From Holothuria leucospilota (taxonomy: Eukaryota): a stretch of DNA of 64,000 nt. Position 1 is the first letter of the stretch; every line of letters starts with the position of its first letter. Location of the stretch: the NCBI GenBank assembly GCA_029531755.1, contig CM055969.1, positions 23,623,285 through 23,687,284 on the forward strand, written 5' to 3'. This document shows, in pieces, positions 24,590 through 52,005 of the stretch. Under the pieces are notes generated by a model, which did no database searches, was not told where the DNA came from, and saw only the letters and a program-made list of their open reading frames with translations. Both the position numbers and the translations under genes were made by a program.

Positions 24590-25195
24590 TACGTCTCTGT
24601 TGACCAACTGGCTTCTATGTTCATCTTCTTATATTTGACTCTTTAGGGAAAAACAAAACACACAACAAAAATAAAAAGCAAAAAACAAATTAAAAAGACA
24701 AAAAATCACCTGTAAAGCTTAAGTTGAGATTAGGGTGTGAAAAAGGACTCTGTAATTTGTGATAGATTGCCTCCATGTGAATCACCTTGTATAAAGTATA
24801 TTATGAAGGCTTTTATACAGTAGGAGGCAAGCAGAGATGCCAAGTTGGAGCTCCTGAAATTTCTTGAGCATACCAGCCAAGCCTCATACAATTTGTGGGA
24901 TTTGTACATGTTTGGAATCAGGACTGTTAAACTGCATCTCAAGCAGTCCCTTACCCCCCCCCCCACCCCCCTCCATCCCATCCCCTACCTTCAAGCCCTG
25001 TCAAAGCTAGAAAATGTTGTGGAGTTTTGTTATCCTGTTGGAAAAGGACATGATAGTTCTCACTGATTTTATTGTGGCCAAGCTTTACATTTTGCAGATT
25101 TTTCCTCATGGTACCCCACACATGCCTGGTTTGCTTCAGAGATAATAGTTTTAGTTTATATATACATATATGAAGTTTCGTAACAGCCTTGTTAT

Positions 25196-25852
25196 TCGTC
25201 AGTTTCTGTATTTATATATATTATACACATATATATATTTCTATAATTTGGGATTTAGGCAAAAAACCATAGCGACTGTTGGGAGAACACGACCCTTAGG
25301 CGAAAAAACCATTTCGCCTTAACGTTTTACACACTGTTTTATATTGGAATGCGTATATCAGGGATGCTAGCAAAATCTGAGTGCCTGGTAATTGTCTCAT
25401 CTGGGGAGAGTAAATTTCGGGCTAGTTTTAGGTTTCGGTAGGCAGATTTGTGGTGGGCGGGTGGACGTGTGTTTGCCTGGAGCGCCGGGCGGGAATATCG
25501 AGTGCTGGGTGTCACCGCCCAGCACCGCCTACCGTAGCTACATCCCTGGAGTATATATATATATAATGCTAGATCGACCTGTTAGGCGAAATCAGTATAC
25601 TGCCAATACAACCGTAAGTCCTTAGTGTTAACGGATACATGCATGTAAGTTGGCGTGCAGTTAAGTAATTGCATAAAAATTATGTGGTAAATCGGACTTG
25701 CGTACAGAGTTACGCATTCCTATATAAAACAGTGTGTAAAACGTTAAGGCAAAACAGTTTCTTCGCCTAAGGGTCGAGTTCTCCCAACAGTCACGTTTTT
25801 TCATACGGTTTTTCGCCTAAATCCCAAATTATAGAAATATATATACACATAC
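25196..25852. mobile_element. Foldback-type element with ~150-bp terminal inverted repeats
   Basis: 25200-25360 is the reverse complement of 25690-25850 (..GGGATTTAGGCAAAAAACCATAGCGACTGTTGGGAGAACACGACCCTTAGGCGAAAAAACCATTTCGCCTTAACGTTTTACACACTGTTTTATA.. versus ..TATAAAACAGTGTGTAAAACGTTAAGGCAAAACAGTTTCTTCGCCTAAGGGTCGAGTTCTCCCAACAGTCACG...). The 320-bp core holds only artefactual ORF 25392..25625. Confidence 0.75.
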
Positions 25853-27060: not shown

Positions 27061-27675
27061 TTGGAGTAAACACTTAGGCCTTTGGCCTAACGTTAGGTTA
27101 GGGTTGTGTTCATGGCAGTCTTACGTTTCTTGTTGGAGTTTACTTTTGGTTTCATAAATTATCATCAACCCTTCACAGAGACAGTTCACATTCTACTGAG
27201 CAAATGGTTGTCTGAAACTAGAAGACGGAATCTCCAGATAATCAAACTCACACGTCGAACGTCAAACGACGATACGATACATGCTGCTGGAAGTTGAAAG
27301 TTCATTGCAACATTCGACCGTACCGTACCTGTACCTGCACAGACTACGTATGCATGCGCATAATATTCGTACAGGAGTATTACGTAATACATAAACAACA
27401 TGCGGACGACAACGTGATATCACGTCGAGTAAGTAAAGTTATGGCGCGCCGTCTGTACAATTACAAGAGAAGACATGTTATGTTATGTTATGTTATGTGA
27501 TGTTATGTTATGTTATGCCCTTCAGTCCAAACCCCTTTACTTATGCAAAGCTAACCAAAACCAACGTCAAAACGGCAGTGTTTGCACTAATCGTTAGTTA
27601 CACGATCTCAAGGTTGTCCGGGTTCAAAGGCATCGCTAAGTCGATCCCTTATAATATATATACTTTATGTATATG

Positions 27676-27682
<7 letters not shown>

Positions 27683-27772
<90 letters not shown>
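27683..27772. repeat. (TA)n microsatellite, tail of Penelope-like copy 1
   Basis: Read directly from the sequence. Confidence 0.95.
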
Positions 27773-28439
27773 AGTAAACGTAACAGACATCACAACAGGA
27801 CACAAAATATATACCAGAGAAGAAGTCCAGTGCAGAACTAAAACGTTTATTCTCATATTTTCGGACGGCAAAGCGTCCTTCTTCAGGCCACGTACTAATA
27901 TACAATAAAACCAAGAACACTCCACAAGCATTTAAAAACGGAGAAAATAAACACAGAGAAGAACGAACGCTCTAGTACACAACTAGTTAAAAGCTAATCC
28001 TAAAAGACACAAAACGAGACAAAGAAACCCAAGACAACTCAAAAGAACACCTAAGAACTTAAGACCTGGATAAAAAAAAAGCCTAGAATACTAAAACGCA
28101 GGAGACAAGGATAGAGTCTACGAAGGCGTCTGGGAACCCAGCAACGGATAAAAACCTAAGGGAGGCCAAAAGAAGAAAGGGGGAAAAGGGGGAGAGAAAC
28201 AGAACTAAAAACATAAAAATAAAAAAAAATAAAAGGGTAACTAGAAGTTAAAATAGAAAGTAAAAGAAAAAGGAAAAATTAAAAAGGAAACAATTAAAAG
28301 AAAAATAAAATAAAATGAAAAACAAATCGAAAAGGAAGTAAAACCTAACGACGAAAAAGGTTGAAAAATTAAAGGCAAGAAAGAATAAAATAACAGCAAA
28401 TAAAAACACGACTTAACGAACTTTCCTAAAATGTTTATT

Positions 28440-28885
28440 TTGGCAGTAAAAACCATCATCTGTATTAATTAGTCTCCAAGGGGTGTCCAGTTTCCAAATC
28501 CATTCCCTTTCTTCAGCATTTAGCAGTTTTTCCAATTTCCCCAAGTTACGATCAACTTTGAAAGTACAATCAACAATCTGAACCTTAAAGGACTCGCAAT
28601 TATGAAAAATAAGATGATCATAAAGAATTTTGAGTCTAATTTGTTTGATGTACCAGCCCTATAAAGTCTTAAATCACTGTGCCCATTAATCCTTATACGA
28701 AAATTATTAGACCTACCCACGTATTGCAACTGACAGACAGGAAATGAAATAACATAGATAAGCCAGAGTGATTCACAAGTAGTAGAAGAGTTCTTACATT
28801 TAAAATTCTTACCTGACAAAATCAGAGCACACAAGCAAACCACAAATTTGACACCTGTTTTTGGCACAACAACGGCAAGGATCAA
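28440..28885 (-). pseudogene. Penelope-like GIY-YIG endonuclease domain, frameshifted
   Basis: ORF 28520..28885(-) carries C..C and LIYVISFPVCQLQYVGRSNNFRIRINGH, with GIY-YIG-like spacing of YVG..R..NGH. The C-terminal GIY-YIG motif EREWIWKLDTPWRLIN lies in a -1 frame at about 28440-28520. Confidence 0.6.
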
Positions 28886-29294
28886 CGGCCATGTTCAAAT
28901 TAATTCTGCTTGGGTCCAAAAGTTTAGCCCGACATAGGGACCTTTTAAGATTGAGAGGCTGGCTGAAACTTATATAACTGGGGCAGCAGGGACAGCTAAC
29001 TTCAATCTATCCGACTGATGCAGGAGAGGTAAAAACTTGGTGAGAATCCTCTTAATGTCAGGTAAAGCGGGGTGGTACTGAACGGTGAAAAACAAAGACT
29101 TTCCTTTAGAAATTTTAGGGGTCATAGAGGTAGTGAAATGTTTATATGCTCGGCCCACTTATTGTTGAACCCTACTCCCTATTATAGCAACGCCTTGCAA
29201 GGTAGTCACTCAATTGGCGACACCTTTTACGCGCTGTCTAAAGACTAGAGCAAATTCTTAAAATGCGTAAGGCCTGACTGTAAGGAATACTGCG

Positions 29295-29516
29295 TTAAGT
29301 ATGGTTTGGGTGGCAACTTATAGCTAGTAAACACTGATGAGTATCAGTAGGCTTAGTATAAAGGTCAGTAACGATTCCACCATCCTGGGAGGTCGATACC
29401 TGTACGTCAAGACAATGAACTAAACTTAGAGAATAATCGCACGTAAATTTAATACAGTTTTCTAGGTTTTTTGAGTTTTCTTGGTTTGCTTTGTCTGGTT
29501 TTGAGTCTTTTAGCAT
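29295..29516 (-). pseudogene. Penelope-like RT C-terminal (thumb) fragment: ...DGGIVTDLYTKPTDTHQCLLAISCHPNHT
   Basis: YxKPTDT-x-x-L-x-x-S-CHP is the conserved motif at the end of Penelope-like and related RT domains. The ORF abuts the inverted pLTR at 29510. Confidence 0.55.
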
Positions 29517-29884
29517 AAGCTTTTAACTTATTGTGTACTAGAGCTTTCGTTCTTCTCTGTGTTTATTTTCTCCGTTTTTAAATGCTTGTGCAGTGTTCTT
29601 GGTTTTATTGTATACAACTACGCAGTGTTGTAATTTAAGAGTCACGACTCAAGTCACTTCTTCTCAAAATGATAGTGACTCGAGAGAATTCAGGAGTAAT
29701 TTCTGCACTGAAATGGTACAGTGACTCGAGTCAATGACTCGACTCGAGTCACTTAAAAGTTTGACAATTGGTCACTCGAGTCACGAATCTACTCACTCGA
29801 TTACAACTCTGCTAGTACGTGGCCTGAAGAAGGACGCTTCACCGTCCGAAAATTTATTTTAGTACTTGCACTGGACCTCCTCTA

Positions 29885-29977
<93 letters not shown>
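29510..29977 (+). mobile_element. Solo Penelope-like 3'-terminal region (pseudo-LTR) with (TA)n tail, inverted relative to copy 1 and direct relative to copy 2
   Basis: 29510-29625 and 29800-29885 are the reverse complement of 27790-27990 and are homologous to 33002-33217 (..ctgaagaaggacgcttcaccgtccgaaaattta.. versus ..ctgaggaaggacacaggagtgtccgaaatata..). Like those two regions it is followed by (TA)n. A 175-bp insert with GTGACTCGAGTCAC-type palindromes sits at 29626-29800. Confidence 0.6.
29886..29977. repeat. (TA)n microsatellite, tail of the solo pLTR
   Basis: Read directly from the sequence. Confidence 0.95.
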
Positions 29978-29979
<2 letters not shown>

Positions 29980-30148
29980 CCTCTGTTTACCCACGTGACA
30001 AACTTCTGTCTTATAAACCAAAGGTTGAAAATTCTCGAATCCCCCTTGTCTTTGATTATTCTCCCAAAACTGAACGGGTACATAAAACCATACGTTCAGA
30101 TAACAGTATTCTTAAGTCTGATTCTTCTATATCTGAGTTAATCAATGA

Positions 30149-30553
30149 CCCCCTTTAACTGCCAGACGTCAACCCCCCAGTCACAAAACATTACTCACAT
30201 CTTCCCGACTGCTTGGTACCCGTAACATAGGCAACGCAAAATGTAGCAAACCGAGGTGTCAGGTCTGTCATTTTATTATTACAGACAAAGAATTTACCCC
30301 TCCCGCCACAAAGTGCATTGTTCGTCCTCCTCCCCTTGACTGCGATACACCCAATGTGGTTTACTTACTCTTTTGTAATATTTGCGACAAAGGCAACTAT
30401 GTCGGGCAGACAAGCAATAAATTCAGATTTAGATTCAATAACCATAAGAAGACTATTCAGGATAAATCTGTTAATTTCCCCGTTTTTAAACATTTCTGTG
30501 GTGAACCGAATCATTCCATTTCAAATCTAAAGTGTATTTTGCTCGGTTCAAAT
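30149..30553 (+). CDS. Penelope-like GIY-YIG endonuclease, N-terminal part, cut off by the hAT insertion
   Basis: CSKPRCQVCHF (the C-x-x-C...C-H knuckle seen in Penelope endonucleases) followed by NVVYLLFCNICDKGNYVGQTSNKFRFRFNNHKKT. ORF track 30356..30583 confirms the frame. Confidence 0.75.
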
Positions 30554-32843
30554 CAGGGTTGGGAAGTAACGAGTTACAAGTAACGCCGTTACTGTAACGA
30601 GTTACATTTTGTGTAACGGAACCCTGTAACGAGTTACATTTGCATTTCAGTAACGGAGCAAGTAACTAGTTACAATTCTGTGTAAAAGTAACTGTAACGG
30701 CGTTACATTTGGGTCCCGTTACTTTCCCGTTACAAATAGTCAAAATGACCACAAATTGCATTTTCTTTGAGCTAATAACAGAATAACAGAAAATTTTCAA
30801 ATTGATGACACTTTGGTAGTAAAATGTAAAATTATTTTCGATATAGGCTATTTATCATTCATCGCTATTATCGACGTCGCCCTCACCGACATCAAATTTT
30901 ATTCACGATTAGAATCAGAAGTTGATATTAGATGCACACGCTGCAGGCTTACAGGCCGGGCCACTTGATTGTCTATTGAACCAGGGAGTTGTCAAATGGC
31001 AACTCCCTGATTGAAATAAGTTTAAAATTGATCTGTATGTCAAAATACTTATTAGACAGATCAATGCTTATTATCCATGAGACCTATTTGTGCGATTATT
31101 TGAAAAATACTGAACGGTCCTCTAAGGCTCAGCTGACTTTATGTATTCTAAGTAAAGTCAACTGGGCCTTGGTTTACTCATATTGTCCTTTAGAGGACAC
31201 AGTGGAGACAGTGTACCGTGAGAAACGGGTTGGCCCATGGGCATTCAAATACCAGCTTACTTTGAAAGTTTAATCATTGCCTCTTGAGACGTTAGGGCTG
31301 GACCCGTGTTCACCCTATCCGAGTCGGAGCTAACTGCGATTCTAGATTCCCGAATCTTTCCGAGCATGGTACTACTCAGGATCCTCAAATTTCTGCCAGT
31401 TTTGATTCCAATGGCACCAATTCCGAGACCAGTCTTTTTGCCAATGTATATCATATCACACATACAGATGTTTTAATTCTATCGTACATGTCCACCATTA
31501 ATTAACAAAGTCATCGTTTGTACTCACTTCCATAGCCTGGCCTCCTGAGTAATTTAGTTGATTGTATGTGACAATACCTTAGATCTGTACATTGTGCACA
31601 AATGGAACTTTAAACACTTTTAATGTAACTTTCATATTTGAGAACTCGGCTGGAATGAACTCCGAGTCCGAGTCCAGTTACATCACATTCCGTAAAAATT
31701 TCGATTCCGGAACCTTCTATCCCGGGCAAATTCCTAATCTAGAAAAACGCTCTTGAGACCGGCATTAAGCTAACCGAATCCGGACTCTTGCGTTGGAGAC
31801 CAGTAAATCTATACGGTGCCAAGCGTTGGTAAACACCGTGCATCCATTTATGCATCTAATTTAACATGTATGGTATCTTTATTTGATGAATCAAACGTAT
31901 GAATTTAGGCTATATCATATTCTTTTCAATGTCCGTAACTCCTTACACTGGAATAATAGTACGGTTAATATACAAAAACAGCAGAATATTGAAATGGTCA
32001 ATGGCGTTAAAAGTATCCTAACAAAGCTAATTGGAAAGAGAAGTGTCCGACTTAAAGCTTTACCTATTGTAAAGGGAAAGTGAATTATGTGCACATGATC
32101 TGCATGTATAAACTGCATAGTATCACCATTTCTATGCACTGTTTTATATCGACACAATGTGAAACTTGAAATTTATGGGGAAATATCACTTAGCCCAACC
32201 TTAGCGGTGAGGTTTCAAAATTTTACTGCTAACAAATGTATTCATCCTCTTATTATACCATATTTATGCTCTTGAGGGGTGAAGACTTTACTGCTGAAAC
32301 AACGCTCTTCCCCTTTCCGGCATAGCCGCTAACCTCTCTAAATTAGCCGACTGTGTGATGGGAGTATAAAGATTTCAACCCTCAGAGAAGTACTTTGGTA
32401 ACTGGAAAAGTTTTGGTTATAACCATATTCCTCTAACAAATAGTTTGCGTAAGCTCCGACACAGTATCATGATTCGCTGCTTCATGTTGAGCATTAGGAG
32501 CCTCTGCGACAATGCCCATTGAAGATCAGCTATAGCTTCATTGACTTTCTTTGGGGAACACCTAAGGATAACCGGCACAAATGAGGTGTCGGTCGTCTCA
32601 TGTGCCCCCGTCTTACTAACTCATTATGCCCCCCCCCCCCTCCATTTCAGGTACCGAGGTACCGTATATTCACCTTGAAGTAACGAGTTACTTTTGAAAT
32701 GTAGCTAGTTACTTTTTAGTCAAAAGTAACTGTAACTAGTTACTTTTTCAACATTGTAACTAGTAACTGTAACGAGTTACAATTTTACGGAATTAACTGT
32801 AACTATAACGAGTTACTTTCAAAGCGTAACGGGAACAACCCTG
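30554..32843. mobile_element. Non-autonomous hAT-superfamily DNA transposon (2.29 kb) with 8-bp TSD GTTCAAAT
   Basis: Terminal inverted repeats CAGGGTTGGGAAGTAACG / CGGGAACAACCCTG. Perfect 8-bp direct repeat GTTCAAAT at 30546-30553 and 32844-32851. Subterminal GTAACGAGTTAC-type repeats at both ends, resembling Ac/Ds subterminal repeats. No transposase ORF inside. Confidence 0.75.
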
Positions 32844-32851
32844 GTTCAAAT

Positions 32852-33001
32852 TACCAATCTGTCAACGAACGCCTCAAATCTGAGAGCAAGTGGGTCGTTA
32901 AACTGTCAACTCATATTAGGGGCCTGAACAAGGACCTTGGCATCTTAAGTGACTTCCCCTTTGTAATTAATAACCCTTCCCAAGCTGCCAAGGTTAACTA
33001 A
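32852..33001 (+). CDS. Penelope-like GIY-YIG endonuclease, C-terminal part, resumes in frame after the hAT element
   Basis: YQSVNERLKSESKWVVKLSTHIRGLNKD... carries the terminal GIY-YIG motif E-x2-W-[IV]-x-K-L-x-T-x3-G-L-N. The frame is continuous with 30149-30553 once the element and one TSD copy are removed. TAA stop at 32999-33001. Confidence 0.7.
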   Translation, partial: YQSVNERLKSESKWVVKLSTHIRGLNKDLGILSDFPFVINNPSQAAKVN

Positions 33002-33214
33002 ACCTGCTTGTCTATCATTTGTTTTGGTTTGTACTTGTTTTACCGTTAAGTTTGAAAAATGCTGTAATTTTTCACTTTCCATTTTGCGCTGAGGAAGGAC
33101 ACAGGAGTGTCCGAAATATACGCTGTTTTTATCGTATCTGTGCTCGTATTATGTCATCTTGGGAATGTGTTTTATTATTTGCTATTTTACATGGAGCATA
33201 TGTGGAGTATTCTC

Positions 33215-33216
<2 letters not shown>

Positions 33217-33310
<94 letters not shown>
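33217..33310. repeat. (TA)n microsatellite, tail of Penelope-like copy 2
   Basis: Read directly from the sequence. Confidence 0.95.
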
Positions 33311-33313
<3 letters not shown>

Positions 33314-33609
33314 TGAAACTTGGAACCCTGTCCCCACATGGTCTGAAGGTTAGACTTAAACTTTTATAACTCAATAATTCCTACATTGTTGTTACCCGTG
33401 TCAACCACTTAACACTGTCCGTTTTCCTAGCCGATTTCCCGTGCCCAATTCTATTGTGTGTTTTCCAATTTGTACGTTCGGCCGTGTCAACAATCAGTTG
33501 ATGAAGGGTTTAAACCCTAAACATCGTGCAGTTTTTCACAAACTTTAAGCGCACTATTTACTAATTATTCTTTGACCTACTTACTTCATAACTGCTACGC
33601 ATTACTCTG

Positions 33610-33744
<135 letters not shown>

Positions 33745-33844
33745 GCATCAGTGGAGAACTAGTGCTGTTCCAGAAATAGGTGCCTGCTCAGGAGGTGAAT
33801 TGTGAGTGCCTCATATGGTGTTTGAACGAAGGCCAAACCAACTT

Positions 33845-33915
33845 GGCTTCATAGCTCAGTGGTTAGAGCGTCTGCACTAGCAAGCGGGAGGTCCCGAGTT
33901 CGAACCCCGGTAGAG
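33845..33915 (+). pseudogene. tRNA-like sequence, a degenerate tRNA or SINE head, flanked by (TA)n tracts
   Basis: Perfect D arm (GCTC AGTGGTTA GAGC) and a good T arm (CCGAG TTCGAAC CCCGG), but the anticodon stem does not pair and the acceptor stem has mismatches. This looks like a pseudogene or SINE head rather than a functional tRNA. Confidence 0.5.
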
Positions 33916-33959
33916 TCAACTTCTTTTCACCTCAGCCAGATTTTCCAGTGTCACAGTTT

Positions 33960-33962
<3 letters not shown>

Positions 33963-34039
<77 letters not shown>
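33963..34039. repeat. (TA)n microsatellite
   Basis: Read directly from the sequence. Confidence 0.95.
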
Positions 34040-34042
<3 letters not shown>

Positions 34043-34969
34043 TCCCGTCGTCGGGCTTATCTCTTCACCAGCTTTTGCTGAGTCTGTATGCAGGTTTTAC
34101 AGTGGTAACAATTTTCCTGCAAAATTTCGGCGCGCTTCCCGCGCAATTCTCACAAGCGAAGTTATATCGTCTATGAATATTATTAGCATAAAAATTCCAG
34201 TGAATTATTCTAGCCAAAGCTAGGTGAAGGTCAAACTTAGATGCTGGGTATCAAGGGGTTTTCATATAGTAATCTAGTAACTTGAGTAACATTCGTAACG
34301 CGATGACTATATGGTTTGAAGCTAAATTTAATCGTACCCAAATTTATTCCAAAATTTATTTTTTCTGTTCATGCAAAATTTCCTTTCAAAGTAGAAATAC
34401 GATAATGACCATCTGAATTGTGAACTGTGAAGAGATTGGTATGCTCTCAGTGTCATTCAAAGTCCTGCTCAAAGCTCCATGTTAGTGTTCCCATTTTGCT
34501 ATTTCCTCGGACATTTGGGGAATTTCCCTCTGGGTCCTAACAAAATCATACTGGACCACACCAAGACTGCCTAATGGCAGCTCCTGGTCCTCTCGCCGTT
34601 CGCAAAGTACACAACTGTTCACCTGCGCTTGCGAAGCTGAAGAAGCATCATCGTGATCATAGTCTTGTTCCCTTCACTTGTGGAGACTTTCCACGTCTTT
34701 CTATTGCAAAAGGAGGCGAAAATGTCCATCACAAGAGTGAAATTTTTGCCCTCTTCACGCGTATGTGCACACGTAAAACCGATACCTTTAAGCTGTCTGC
34801 GGTAAGCTTGAGATATCATCCCCTGTAGTTCCCGCAAACTGTAATCATATGGTGGCTCTACTGTCTACAAACATAATTATCTTCTTCGGTGCCTCCCTAT
34901 GAGGTGCCGGTGCCCCCTTATGTAAGAATTCCTGGCTACGGGCCTGCTGTTACAACTCATAATGTAGTA

Positions 34970-35462
34970 AACATTGGCCAATAATGTATCACTAACCGAT
35001 AATGTATCACTAACCAATAATGCAGTAACTTTTTAACCGATAATGTATCAACTCAATACCGACAATGTAGTAAAATAGTTTTAACCGATAATGTATTACT
35101 CTCTAAATGTAAAAGAGTGAATTTCACTCTTCGACGATTGCCTACAGTGACCACTTTCTGTTTAGAGTGGAATTTTACTCTGCCCGGAGTGGTAATTCAC
35201 TCATTTGGAGTGAATTACCACTCCGGGCAGAGTGAAATTTTCACTCGAAGAAAGAGTGGTCACTGTAGGCAATCGTCGAAGAGTGAAATTCACTCTTTTA
35301 CATTTAGAGAGTACCATTTGAACGATAATGTAGTAAAAGTTAATACATTATCGGTCAATTTTTACTACATTATCGGTTAGTGATACAGTTATCGGTCAAG
35401 TTTACTACATTATCGGTTAATGATACATTATCAGTCAATTACTACATTATCAGTCAACACCC
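34970..35462. repeat. Near-perfect 490-bp palindrome (foldback or hairpin element) with inverted ACCGATAATGTA sub-repeats
   Basis: Central arms at 35117-35210 and 35216-35320 are almost exact reverse complements around a 5-nt loop. The outer regions at 34975-35110 and 35330-35460 carry CCGATAATGTA(T/G) repeats in opposite orientations. Confidence 0.85.
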
Positions 35463-35606: not shown

Positions 35607-35691
<85 letters not shown>

Positions 35692-35705
35692 TATATATAT
35701 ATATA
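35607..35705. repeat. (TA)n microsatellite
   Basis: Read directly from the sequence. Confidence 0.95.
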
Positions 35706-36099: not shown

Positions 36100-36360
36100 A
36101 TTATCAGTGGTGTATTTGAGGGGCCATTGGGCCGTGACCCCCCTCACTTATACCGATTTTCACTTAAGTACCTAAAATACTTTAATTTCTTAACACAAAT
36201 TTTACTTAAAAGCGGCTAGCATATGTGACACCAGATTGCATGTAAGGACACCGAATTTTTCAAAAATTTCAAAGGCAGGTGGTAATACCGCTTTTTTGGA
36301 CCTAAAATACTTATTTTTTAACACAAATATACCCCCTCCCCTAGGCCGGCGATCACACAA
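36100..36360. mobile_element. Related copy of the 51570-52005 element, opposite orientation
   Basis: Begins CAGTGGTGTATTTGAGGGG and contains ..GGACCTAAAATACTTATTTTTTAACACAAAT.., the reverse complement of the internal unit of 51570-52005. Confidence 0.5.
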
Positions 36361-39364: not shown

Positions 39365-39374
39365 GGCCAACATT

Positions 39375-40265
39375 TACCAAACAATTGTTGGGTTTCATTC
39401 ATTGAACCAATGTTAGGCCAACATTATCCATCCAACAGTAGGGCTTTCTTCGGTCAAACAACATTGGGCCAACATATACCAACCAACTGTTGGGTCACAT
39501 ATATTGAACCAACGTTGGGCGAACATAATTCAGCCCAACTGTTAGGCCTTATTCGTTTAACCAACGTTGGACCAACGTGTACCAACCAAATGTTGGGCCT
39601 TACTCGTTAAACCAATGTGGGGCCAACATGTACCAACCAACTGTTGGGCCACATTCCTTTAACCAACGATGGGCGAACATTGCCCAGCCAACTGTTAGGC
39701 CTTATTTGTTTAACCAACATTGGACCAACATGTACCAACCAAATGTTGGGCCTTACTCGTTAAACCAATGTGGGGCCAGCATGTACCGCAACCAACTGTT
39801 GGGCCACATTCCTTTAACCAACGATGGGCGAACATTGCCCAGCCAACTGTTAGGCCTTATTTGTTTAACCAACATTGGACCAACATGTACCAACCAAATG
39901 TTGGGCCTTACTCGTTAAACCAATGTGGGGCCAGCATGTACCGCAACCAACTGTTGGGCCACATTCCTTTAACCAACGATGGGCGAACATTGCCCAGCCA
40001 ACTGTTAGGCCTTATTCGTTTAACCAACATTGGACCAACATGTACCAACTAATGTTGGGCCTTACTTGTTAAACCAACATGGGGCCAACATGTATCAACC
40101 AAAGGATGGGCTTCATTCATTTAACCAACGTTGGGCACACATTGCCCCGCCGACTGATAGGCCTTATTTTAGACATTATGTAAGAAACCAACGTTGAGCC
40201 AGTTTAAAGTTACCAACTGTTGGGAATCATATATTGAACCAACGTTGGACCAACACTTAAATTTT
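39375..40265. repeat. Satellite, ~155-bp unit in about 5.5 tandem copies, with (TTGGGCCAACAT / ACCAACCAACTGTTGGGCC) sub-repeats
   Basis: ORF-track entries 39577.., 39720.. and 39875.. repeat the same peptide with a 143-155 nt period. A related degenerate stretch lies at 38690-38830. Confidence 0.85.
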
Positions 40266-48536: not shown

Positions 48537-50125
48537 CACTTTGCTTGTTAACACGATATCTCAAGAAGGGAAACTCTGACAGTTCTCAAACTTGGTACAT
48601 AGATGCCCCATATTGAGAGGAAGAATCCTCTTGTTTTTGGTGGGGGTCAAAGGTCACCTGGGGTCACCGGAGGTCAAACCCTGAAAACTTTGTTAACACG
48701 ATATCTCAAGAAGGGAAACTCTGACTGTTCTCAAACTTGGTACATAGATGCCCGACATTGAGAGAAAGAACCCTATTGTTTTTGATGGGGGTCAAAGTCA
48801 CCTGGGGTCACCGGGGGTCAAACTCTGAAAACTTTGTTAACACGATATCTCAAGAAGGGAAGCTCTGACTGTTCTCAAACTTGGTACATAGATGCCCCAT
48901 ATTGAGAGGAAGAACCCTTTTGTTTTTGGTGGGGGTCAAAGGTCACCTGGGATCACCGGGGGTCAAACTTTGAAAACCTTGTTAACACAACATCTCGAGG
49001 TAGGAAGCCTGGATGAATTTCATACTTTGTATGTAGATGCGTTATGGTAAGAGGAAGAACCCTTTTATTTTTGGTGGAGGTGAAAGGTCATCTGGGGTCA
49101 CCGGGGGTCAAACCCTGAAAATCTTGTTAACACTGTAACTTGAGTTACAAAGCTTGGATGAATTTTATACTTTGTATGTAAATGCGTTATGGTAAGAGGA
49201 AGAACCCTATCTTTTTTGGTGGAGGTCAAAGGTCATTTGGGGGTCACCAGGGGTCAGACCCTAAAAACCTTGTTAACCTGATATCTTCAGGTAGGAAGCT
49301 TGGATAAATTTCATACTTTGTACGTAGATGCCTTATAGGTAGAGAAAGAACCCTATTATTTTTGGTGGGGTTCAAAGGCCATCTGGGGTCACCGGGGGTG
49401 AAACCTGAAAACCTGGTTAACACGATATCTCAAGGTAGGAAGCTTGAATAAGTTTCATACTTTGTATGTAGATGCTTTATAGTAAGAGGAAGAATACTAT
49501 CACTTTTGGTGGAGGTCAAAGTACATTTGGGGTCACTGGGGGTTAAACTCTGAAAATCTTGTTAACACGATACCTCCAGGTAGGAAGCTTGGATAGATTT
49601 CATACGTAGTATGTAGATGCGTTATAGTGAGAAGATGAATCCTATTATTTTTGGTGGAGGTCAAAGGTCATCTGGGATCACCAGAGGTCAATGTCTGAAA
49701 ACCTTGTCAAGAGGATATCTCCAGGTAGGAAGCTTGAATAGATTTCATACTTGGTAAATTGATGTTATAGTGAGAAGATGTACCCCATTGTTTTTGGTGG
49801 AGTTGAAAGGTCATCTAGGGTCACCAGGGGTCAAACACTGGAAACCTTGTTAACACAATTTCTCAAGGGAGAAAACTTGGATAGATTTTATGCTTAGTAT
49901 GTGGATGTGTTATGGTGAAAAGATGGACCCCATTGTTTTTGGGGGAGGTCAAAGGTCATCTGGGGTCACCAGAGGTAAAAAAAGCAAAATTTCCCAAGAA
50001 TTCCTAAGAATATTACATGGGTTCACCAGAGGTCAAAGAGCAAAATTTCCCGAGAATTCCCAAGATCGTCATCTGGGGTCACCAGAGTTCAAAACGCAAA
50101 TTCCCCAAGAATTCCCAAGACTAAA
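48537..50125. repeat. Intronic satellite in MARS1 intron 3: ~155-bp unit in about 10 copies, ending in three ~45-bp sub-repeats
   Basis: Unit ...TTGTTAACACGATATCTCAAGAAGGGAAACTCTGAC.GTTCTCAAACTTGGTACATAGATGCCCCATATTGAGAGGAAGAA.CCT.TTGTTTTTGGTGGGGGTCAAAGGTCACCTGGGGTCACCGGGGGTCAAAC.CTGAAAAC repeats with a 150-156 nt period and progressive divergence. It is unrelated to the satellite at 39375-40265. Confidence 0.85.
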
Positions 50126-51569: not shown

Positions 51570-52005
51570 GAATGCAGCGGCGTACCCAGGATTTCTCTCT
51601 TGCATTAAAAAATTTAAATACTTTTAGGAAATAAAAAATAGGCATCAGTGAGGGGGGCATGGCCCAGTGGGGTGTCCCCCTCCCCTTTGAAAAATTTTGA
51701 AACATTTGGTGTCCTTATGTGCAATCTGGTGCCAAATATGCTACCTTTTGAAGTAAATTTGTGTTAAAAAATTTACATATTTTTAGGAACTAAAAAAATA
51801 GGCATCAGTGAAGGGGCATGGCCCAGTGGGGTGCCCCCTCCCCTTTGAAAAATTTTGAACAATTTGGTGTCCTTACATGGAACCTGGTGCCAAATATGCT
51901 ACCTTTTATAGTAAATTTGTGGTAAAAAATTTACGTTAGGAACTTAAAAAAATCGGAATCAGTGAGGGGGGGGCATGGCCGAATGGCCCTCCCCTCTGGG
52001 TACGC
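51570..52005. mobile_element. MITE-like element with CAGCGGCGTACCCAGG / CTGGGTACGCCACTG termini and 2.5 internal ~190-bp tandem units
   Basis: Inverted termini at 51575-51595 and 51985-52000. Internal units ..AAAAATAGGCATCAGTGAGGGGGGCATGGCCCAGTGGGGTG(T)CCCCCTCCCCTTTGAAAAATTTTGAA.. repeat. A related copy in reverse orientation lies at 36100-36360. Confidence 0.6.

Follow-up and report, generated by a model that had tools for sequence, protein, structure and literature searches.

Introduction

Penelope-like elements (PLEs) of the Neptune and Nematis type, as described in Arkhipova 2006 and summarised in Craig et al. 2021 (PMC8557442), encode a reverse transcriptase (RT) with a DKG motif plus a GIY-YIG endonuclease at the C-terminus within one open reading frame (ORF), with a CX2-5CxxC linker between them and a CCHH motif in the endonuclease. 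The same summary also names 5' truncation, partial copies that are tandem or inverted, a terminal repeat with a minimal hammerhead, an optional tail and a microsatellite insertion bias that is attributed to the linker. Here, we analyse a 64,000-nucleotide stretch of the genome of the holothurian Holothuria leucospilota (GCA_029531755.1, contig CM055969.1, positions 23,623,285 to 23,687,284 of the forward strand; hereafter the window, in whose own coordinates all positions are given), in which two truncated PLEs, copy 1 on the minus strand and copy 2 on the plus strand, diverge from a short partial copy that lies between them. All of the features listed above recur in these copies or in their relatives, the linker in the form CX4CxxC, and against that summary we find no structural difference, the families not having been compared with Repbase or Dfam.

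Insertion into (TA)n has been described for the Hydra and Naiad groups, and a linker-associated microsatellite bias for Neptune (PMC8557442); a study of Neptune in killifish (PMC12602865) holds nothing on insertion targets. An abutting inverted 5'-truncated copy, a hammerhead in the pseudo-long terminal repeat (pLTR) and an optional tail of 30-40 bp, often at only one end of the insertion unit, are likewise published PLE features (PMC8557442). Purified PLE protein has been seen in vitro to cut both strands of AT-rich DNA and to extend both, with reverse transcription starting at two adjacent sites (PMC11167929). In the minimal hammerheads of PLEs (Cervera & de la Pena 2014, PMC4209133), one nucleotide between A9 and G10.1 stays unpaired, G10.1 forms a conserved pair with C11.1, helix II is long and helix I short, and a palindromic 15.2-16.2 segment replaces the helix III hairpin. 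They occur mostly as solo motifs of truncated PLEs, and some form opposite-strand pairs 100-700 bp apart (PMC4209133).

We find that the region is very probably a pile-up of dead, 5'-truncated PLE copies of two families in one (TA)n microsatellite, which later received two small hAT inserts. This is known PLE behaviour and no new arrangement, and the copies are at most uncatalogued holothurian members of a known PLE type.

Organisation of the locus

Matches to PLE coding sequence, by tblastn and by profile, are confined in the window to 28661-29468 on the minus strand and to 29979-30553 and 32843-32989 on the plus strand, and the best protein matches of these remnants are Holothuria leucospilota hypothetical proteins with identities of up to 88-93%. 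Tandem Repeats Finder (TRF) finds six long (TA)n tracts in the window, all inside 27.6-35.7 kb. Three of them stand at the three 3' ends of the PLE copies, as an earlier reading of the region from its letters (the sequence-only reading) had noted. The features of the region are as follows.

27650-27772, no strand: (TA)n tract 1, bordering the 3' end of copy 1 (TRF, period 2, 62 copies)
27773-27813, minus strand: candidate PLE tail of copy 1, 35 nt at 27773-27807 (TTTTGTGTCCTGTTGTGATGTCTGTTACGTTTACT, minus strand) preceded by TATATA at 27808-27813 (alignment against the inverted arm)
27814-28412, minus strand: 3' untranslated region (UTR) of copy 1, between the stop of the last frame and the shorter 3' end (site 1), T-rich on the coding strand
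27856-27886, minus strand: decayed hammerhead of copy 1, CUGAAGA-A-GGACG/CGUCC-GAAA (pattern scan; covariance model R1, 11.6 bits, E=0.4)
28413-29455, minus strand: coding remnant of copy 1 with RT thumb, linker CAKNRCQIC and GIY-YIG (translations, tblastn, Pfam GIY-YIG)
29456-29886, plus strand: inverted 5'-truncated partial copy of the copy 1 3' end, hereafter the inverted arm, which the sequence-only reading called a solo pLTR (inverted repeat I1 and alignments)
29623-29811, no strand: putative 189-bp hAT-type miniature inverted-repeat transposable element (MITE) within the inverted arm, terminal inverted repeats (TIRs) CAGTGTTGTAAT / CAGAGTTGTAAT, 11/12 match
29824-29855, plus strand: hammerhead motif of the inverted arm with core, helix II GGACG/CGUCC, palindromic AAUU and U17 (R1, 16.1 bits, E=0.018)
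29887-29977, no strand: (TA)n tract 2, at the 3' end of the inverted arm and touching the truncated 5' end of copy 2 (TRF, 45.5 copies, 100% matches)
29978-30553, plus strand: copy 2 part 1, with the RT C-terminal region, linker CSKPRCQVC and the start of GIY-YIG (translations; tblastn with P0001, residues 76-279, 87-93% identity)
30554-32843, no strand: 2,290-bp non-autonomous hAT-like element in the GIY-YIG frame of copy 2, termini CAGGGTTG, target site duplication (TSD) GTTCAAAT
32852-33001, plus strand: copy 2 part 2, the GIY-YIG C-terminus (..ERLKSESKWVVKLSTHIRGLNKDLGIL..) with its stop at 32999-33001 (hmmsearch with the profile of alignment A1, E=1.6e-13; tblastn)
33002-33217, plus strand: 3' UTR of copy 2, unalignable to copy 1 or the inverted arm except at the hammerhead
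33083-33126, plus strand: intact minimal hammerhead of copy 2, GCG-CUGAGGA-A-GGACAC-AGGA-GUGUCC-GAA-AUAU-A, then CGC (R1, 44.9 bits, E=3.4e-11)
33218-33311, no strand: (TA)n tract 3, bordering the 3' end of copy 2 (TRF, 47 copies, 100% matches)
33312-33613, plus strand: segment C, a possible third PLE 3' fragment, unproven, with a degenerate hammerhead-like motif at 33493-33530 (R1, 12.4 bits, E=0.22, noise)
33614-33744, no strand: (TA)n tract 4 (TRF)
33963-34039 and 35607-35705, no strand: further (TA)n tracts (TRF)

Copy 1 keeps roughly the C-terminal 45% of its ORF in a heavily decayed frame with many stops and frameshifts, in which the RT thumb (..FLDV..DLYTKPTDTHQCLLAISCHPNHTKRSIPYSQALRI.RICS..), the linker CAKNRCQIC and GIY-YIG (..YVGRSNNFRIRINGH..) follow one another in order up to a stop at 28413-28415. 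Relatives align to copy 1 by tblastn with E-values down to 3e-29 (P0140, residues ~429-695 of 767 amino acids [aa]). The GIY-YIG frame that had been described on the minus strand at 28440-28885 is seen in translation, by tblastn and by Pfam, at 22.9 bits against a cut-off of 22.6, and the RT-thumb peptide (..DLYTKPTDTHQCLLAISCHP..) described upstream of it is present at 29295-29516.

Copy 2 begins straight after tract 2, within the RT C-terminal region (from residue 76 of HOLleu_09441), and its frame is open apart from a single frameshift near 30149. The plus-strand GIY-YIG frame that had been placed at 30149-33001 is indeed homologous, extending from 29978/30149 to the stop at 32999-33001 with 88-93% identity to HOLleu_09441, but it is not continuous, being split by the 2,290-bp insert. 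Specifically, the P0001 alignment crosses this insert contiguously, from residue 279 to residue 277.

Read in reverse complement, the inverted arm corresponds to the final ~290 nt of the copy 1 3' UTR. Its positions 29469-29622 pair with the inverted-repeat arm 27891-28044 in that UTR over 154 nt at 91% identity, and a second piece pairs over 92 nt at 78% with a 10-nt indel; once the MITE is removed, ~242 bp are left. At ~29455/29456 the 5' ends of copy 1 and the inverted arm abut directly, with no TA repeat between them. A solo copy of the terminus therefore exists, as the sequence-only reading had it, and in the orientation that it gave, direct to copy 2 and inverted to copy 1, but its real span is 29456-29886 rather than 29510-29977, and it holds the MITE at 29623-29811.

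Over linker and endonuclease, copy 1 and copy 2 share 23% protein identity, and the 3' UTR of copy 2 aligns to copy 1 and to the inverted arm solely through a ~40-nt motif, CUGARGA-A-GGAC...GUCC-GAAA. Because of this low identity and the otherwise unalignable 3' UTR, the two copies are, as judged from their sequences, different families, here A (copy 1) and B (copy 2). Of the three copies of a ~200-bp terminus that had been counted, the 3' end of copy 1 and the inverted arm are mutual copies, whereas the 3' UTR of copy 2 is not a third. The identification of both elements as 5'-truncated PLEs stands, with the RT thumb followed by a zinc-finger linker and by GIY-YIG at the C-terminus, a minimal hammerhead in the 3' UTR and an inverted partial copy at the 5' end of copy 1.

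Hammerhead motifs in the 3' UTRs

Each 3' UTR holds a putative PLE-type minimal hammerhead motif, which is intact only in copy 2. A search for relatives yielded about 90 related loci from metagenome and genome contigs, and covariance model R1 was built from 26 of them, with no window sequence. Among the first 83 related loci recovered, 36 carry the strict motif, in every case downstream of the ORF's stop and on the same strand as the ORF. Across the 26 distinct motifs of alignment A3, pairing in the two helices amounts to 96.5%, and double changes are seen in 9 of the 10 pairs; none of 500 shuffles attained the observed values. Helix I covaries (CACC/GGUG, UGCC/GGCA, CGCC/GGCG, GCACA/UGUGC) though it lies outside the selection filter, and in L001 a compensatory change, GAACAC/GUGUUC, is seen. 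In the window, the strict descriptor finds the copy 2 hammerhead alone, against none in 50 shuffles.

The motifs here share with the published PLE hammerheads (PMC4209133) the type I core CUGANGA...GAAA, a helix II of 4-8 bp, a helix I of 3-5 bp and, at 15.1-16.1, a palindromic tetranucleotide (AUAU, AAUU or ACGU), which implies dimeric activity. No differences were found in this comparison, which is a match by sequence only, and the copy 2 motif has every feature given in PMC4209133. The copy 1 motif, in which an indel follows GAAA, is homologous to that of the inverted arm, whose score comes from the core and helix II only; helix I is absent from both. A 28-nt stretch of the copy 2 hammerhead is 96% identical to one in L089.

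Segment C measures 302 bp between two (TA)n tracts, and its motif, UUGAUGA-A-GGGUU/AACCC-UAAA, lies ~84 nt before tract 4. No PLE coding remnant was found in segments C, D and E, using the profile and 51 full-length queries.

Rfam reports no hammerhead in the window, either at the gathering threshold or at E<=10, and this negative is uninformative because Rfam also misses clean minimal hammerheads in the related loci L013, L026 and L034. For annotation, this means that Rfam hammerhead models miss the minimal hammerheads of PLEs, while gene predictors label the coding fragments as hypothetical proteins. Beyond annotation, the significance of the locus is small.

Two hammerhead-like candidates elsewhere in the window were set aside. 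One is a core at ~25.2 kb on the minus strand, in which the G10.1-C11.1 pair fails and the spacing is wrong; it was treated as a chance occurrence. Its surroundings (25150-25830, minus strand) show a CUGACGA-hairpin-CGAAA core in a short TA-rich patch, without the usual spacing to (TA)n and beside a MITE-like element with ~90-bp TIRs. The other is the left end of segment E (34066-34226, minus strand), considered as a PLE 3' end. Its GC-hairpin and CGAAATTT are a dispersed repeat without CUGANGA that is also found at 271-433 and 1181-1250 without (TA)n. This repeat, at 271-433, ~905-935, 1181-1250 and 34066-34226, has CGAAATTT(T) after a GC-rich hairpin, as in GCGCGAAGCGCGCCGAAATTT; its likeness to helix II plus GAAA is superficial, and it has no association with (TA)n.

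Insertion history

The best explanation of the locus, in which we place high confidence, is that two PLE families inserted into one (TA)n microsatellite by target-primed reverse transcription. In an older event, a family A unit (27773-29886) would have been formed, in which a 1.68-kb truncated minus-strand copy meets, head-to-head, an inverted ~240-bp copy of its own 3' end, so that both 3' ends point outward into (TA)n, with a possible ~40-nt tail at one end only. Most likely, PLE protein would nick both strands of the self-complementary (TA)n, both 3'-OH ends would prime complementary DNA (cDNA) synthesis on the element RNA, and the two cDNAs would then be joined by their 5' ends. In a younger event, a truncated family B copy (29978-33217) would have entered the (TA)n flanking the first unit, giving the look of a tandem of pLTR and element; copy 2 is best read as an independent insertion into the microsatellite. 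Last, the 189-bp hAT MITE would have entered the inverted arm, and the 2.3-kb hAT-like element the endonuclease frame of copy 2.

The formation of the family A unit in a single event is favoured because the junction between copy 1 and the inverted arm is free of TA and because both-strand cleavage and extension occur in vitro (PMC11167929). The proposed process resembles twin priming, or 5' inversion, of L1, in which two cDNAs primed from both target strands are also joined head-to-head. It differs in that the inverted segment of L1 derives from within the RNA, with the 3' terminus at one end alone, whereas here both arms carry it, as in PLE units.

Comparable architecture is found among the relatives. 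Tandem truncated copies split by TA tracts occur in L001, L045 and L089, and L089 has both a divergent hammerhead pair and a tandem pile-up.

Further junctions of this kind were seen in passing. In another species (ENA ERZ26859072), at L089 3300-7300 and L090 3200-5100, hammerhead fragments are stacked in tandem with (TA)n 25-90 nt after each; these loci include two divergent hammerheads separated by ~200 bp and a truncated copy that (TA)n flanks at either end. In L067 (3266-3330), the order is (TA)7, the 5' half of a hammerhead in reverse complement, and the plus-strand ORF, and the L002 contig (1-95 and 1276-1370) opens with ~95 nt that are the reverse complement of the beginning of its own 3' UTR. 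The L067 and L002 junctions fit the inverted-copy habit of PLEs, though they may also be short-read assembly artefacts.

We consider it unlikely, although worth weighing first, that three independent insertions took place, with the inverted 240-bp copy as a separate, extremely truncated family A insertion in the opposite orientation. Strong 5' truncation and repeated hits on (TA)n are typical of these elements (PMC8557442), the two arms differ by ~9-20% including indels, and they end at different 3' sites with the tail on one only. However, had a second copy entered the microsatellite beside the first, a (TA)n remnant would be expected at ~29455/29456, where there is none. An abutting inverted copy with a tail at one end is, moreover, the published signature of a single PLE unit (PMC8557442), both-strand cleavage and extension have been demonstrated in vitro (PMC11167929), and the divergence of the arms fits the advanced decay of the copy 1 ORF.

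For the account of two families nested in one microsatellite, several observations count on the other side. The Pfam GIY-YIG matches are marginal (19-23 bits against the 22.6 cut-off), the copy 1 hammerhead scores at noise level, and helix I is absent from copy 1 and the inverted arm. The search recovered no other member of the copy 1 family; the nearest relatives are ~50-55% identical and come from other species, as do the contigs found in that search (L084-L090), whose 3' UTRs are non-homologous. Because the relatives are so distant and their 3' UTRs do not align, the consensus 3' end, helix I and tail of family A are not reconstructable, and because no other family A members were recovered, the assignment of the tail to copy 1 and an intact hammerhead for family A stand by analogy. 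The clade call comes from diagnostic motifs, with no phylogeny including Repbase references, and Neptune and Nematis are inseparable here. Each (TA)n tract next to a PLE copy sits at the 3' end of one of the copies, so that the window alone cannot separate a target from a templated tail. Finally, (TA) runs of at least four units lie within 260 nt of only 12 of the 33 scorable hammerheads in the related loci; (TA)n targeting is a tendency rather than a strict rule.

Candidate tail extension and RT start sites

The inverted arm ends in ...CTCTATGA directly before (TA)n, whereas copy 1 ends in ...CTCTGG-TATATA, then 35 nt, then (TA)n; from this alignment, copy 1 appears to have a tail and the inverted arm none. 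Among the related loci, the distance from the hammerhead to (TA)n takes two discrete values, +37-42 or +90-98, and read-through copies show the longer form to contain the shorter end (site 1). The two offsets match the optional tail (PMC8557442) and the two adjacent RT start sites (PMC11167929) described in the literature.

In read-through copies, short TA runs are often present exactly at the internal, alternative 3'-end site: the read-through copies L012, L026, L030 and L038 and copy 1 in the window (27808-27813) have TATATAT at site 1, and L020 and L069 have TATAT.

Tentatively, short template-encoded UA runs may lie at both alternative RT start sites in this (TA)n-associated lineage of Neptune type, and a nicked (TA)n may anneal to either run from either strand. 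If so, microhomology priming on palindromic (TA)n would account at once for the (TA)n bias, for head-to-head inverted units and for the tail being optional. Such priming would differ from what is reported for Poseidon in Anolis, where internal initiation is homology-independent.

Origin of the (TA)n tracts

The (TA)n tracts are better read as one target microsatellite that was split repeatedly by insertions, each of which would leave (TA)n on its 3' side and so invite the next. This reading is preferred because 5'-truncated relatives (L081, L074, L044) begin straight after (TA)n, and the DNA upstream is unrelated and free of hammerheads. The truncated copy in L090 is flanked by (TA)n at either end, and in the window the tracts at 33963-34039 and 35607-35705 border segments without PLE homology.

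That the elements themselves made the (TA)n as tails, for example because their telomerase-related RT copied a terminal UA run over and over, is improbable. The 3' position of every tract next to a PLE copy would suit such an origin, as would the (TA)4-18 endings of variable length on related copies and the short template-encoded TA runs at the RT start sites. The 5'-truncated relatives, the two-sided (TA)n of L090 and the tracts bordering PLE-free segments speak against it, and the literature describes insertion into (TA)n (PMC8557442) and cleavage of AT-rich DNA (PMC11167929). The two origins are not mutually exclusive.

The (TA)n association recurs in the related loci and is not limited to Hydra and Naiad but extends to C-terminal-endonuclease PLEs with CX4CxxC and CCHH, which fits the published idea of targeting through the linker.

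Telomere-type repeats belong to PLEs that lack an endonuclease (Athena, Coprina). The sequence-only reading had set the (TA)n ending against such a repeat; since telomere-type repeats concern only endonuclease-lacking PLEs, (TA)n is no anomaly here.

Role of the inverted arm and clade placement

A pLTR partially duplicates, in tandem, the element that carries it. The inverted arm belongs to the copy 1 family and is therefore not the pLTR of copy 2. The claim that a single solo pLTR serves both divergent elements, for instance as a bidirectional promoter or common terminal repeat, is thus highly improbable: its geometry is suggestive, as the arm lies between two truncated 5' ends, inverted to copy 1 and direct to copy 2, and promoters are reported in PLE pLTRs (PMC2377424), but the arm matches copy 1 alone (91%) and shares only the ~40-nt hammerhead motif with the copy 2 3' end, the two elements are 23% identical in protein, 91 bp of (TA)n separate the arm from copy 2, both elements are 5'-truncated and dead with most of the RT gone, and the arm itself is broken by a MITE. 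The locus serves as a worked example of how nested PLE units in microsatellites, with an inverted partial copy, a possible one-sided tail and a minimal hammerhead, mimic a shared long terminal repeat.

By their diagnostic motifs, the copies are canonical PLEs with a C-terminal endonuclease, of the Neptune/Nematis type, and belong to neither Hydra nor Naiad. RT and GIY-YIG lie in one ORF: in copy 1 the RT thumb, linker and GIY-YIG share one orientation, and the relatives P0024, P0031, P0041 and P0042 match both RVT_1 and GIY-YIG, while P0169 is annotated with PF00078, PF26215 and PF01541. The GIY-YIG profile matches the C-terminal ends of 800-980 aa proteins, in a very large family (39,138 cluster representatives at E<=1e-3). 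The CX4CxxC linker reads CSKPRCQVC in copy 2 and CAKNRCQIC in copy 1 and is conserved in relatives. The CCHH motif within GIY-YIG is seen in copy 2 as FCNIC...NNH...KHF, and its C, H and H columns are invariant in alignment A1, together with CxxC. In full-length relatives, to which this comparison is confined as the window copies are truncated before the region, DKG occurs as KPADKGG or KPVDKGG. L022 and L024 show a pLTR-ORF-pLTR organisation with a hammerhead spacing of 3.4 kb.

Naiads share with the copies here the (TA)n bias, a Neptune-like endonuclease with both zinc-finger motifs, abutting inverted truncated copies and a tail (Craig et al. 2021, PMC8557442). They differ in having an N-terminal endonuclease followed by a CxC domain and the RT, and no canonical hammerhead, whereas here, both in the window and in every relative, the endonuclease is found downstream of the RT thumb, and hammerheads are present.

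It is exceedingly unlikely that the elements belong to the Hydra clade, (TA)n-targeting PLEs known from the sea cucumber Apostichopus: Hydra elements do have aquatic invertebrate hosts including sea cucumber, a C-terminal endonuclease, canonical hammerheads and, in nearly all families, insertion into (TA)n (Craig et al. 2021, PMC8557442), but they have an endonuclease without CCHH, a CxCX5C linker, DKT in place of DKG, an RWK motif and a length below 3 kb, whereas here CCHH is retained, the linker is CX4CxxC, the full-length relatives have DKG (KPADKGG) and the units measure ~3.4 kb with ORFs of 800-980 aa, and (TA)n insertion, which is shared, is not exclusive to Hydra but is found in Naiads too (PMC8557442).

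Nested hAT-type inserts

Elements of the hAT superfamily make an 8-bp TSD and have short TIRs starting with CAG or TAG. The 2,290-bp insert has a perfect 8-bp TSD, GTTCAAAT, at 30546-30553 and 32844-32851, and contains subterminal GTAACGAGTTAC repeats. The 8-bp TSD of the 189-bp MITE, CAACTACG / CTAGTACG, matches at 6 of 8 positions, and the corresponding empty site in copy 1 is TTAGTACG. Neither insert contains a transposase, and both are assigned to non-autonomous hAT elements, the superfamily being read from the termini alone.

Flanking segments

The 218-bp segment at 33745-33962 has (TA)n on both sides and holds a transfer RNA (tRNA)-like sequence at 33845-33918 on the plus strand, which scores 40.6 bits with the Rfam tRNA model, above the gathering score, and to which ARAGORN assigns no anticodon. 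The segment has no hammerhead and no PLE homology; the tRNA-like sequence may represent a tRNA pseudogene or part of a tRNA-derived short interspersed nuclear element that also landed in the microsatellite. Segment E, which (TA)n bounds, contains at 34959-35460 a near-perfect palindrome (~35100-35300) with tandem repeats of 19-48 bp units on either side (34978-35100 and 35340-35457), inverted relative to each other; this looks like a foldback or MITE element. Satellite-like arrays lie at 39365-40169, 48544-50120, 51605-51970 and 36121-36275, with units of 51/155 bp, of 145/289 bp then 56 bp, and of 158 bp; a partial copy of the 158-bp unit stands just to the right of the (TA)n cluster.

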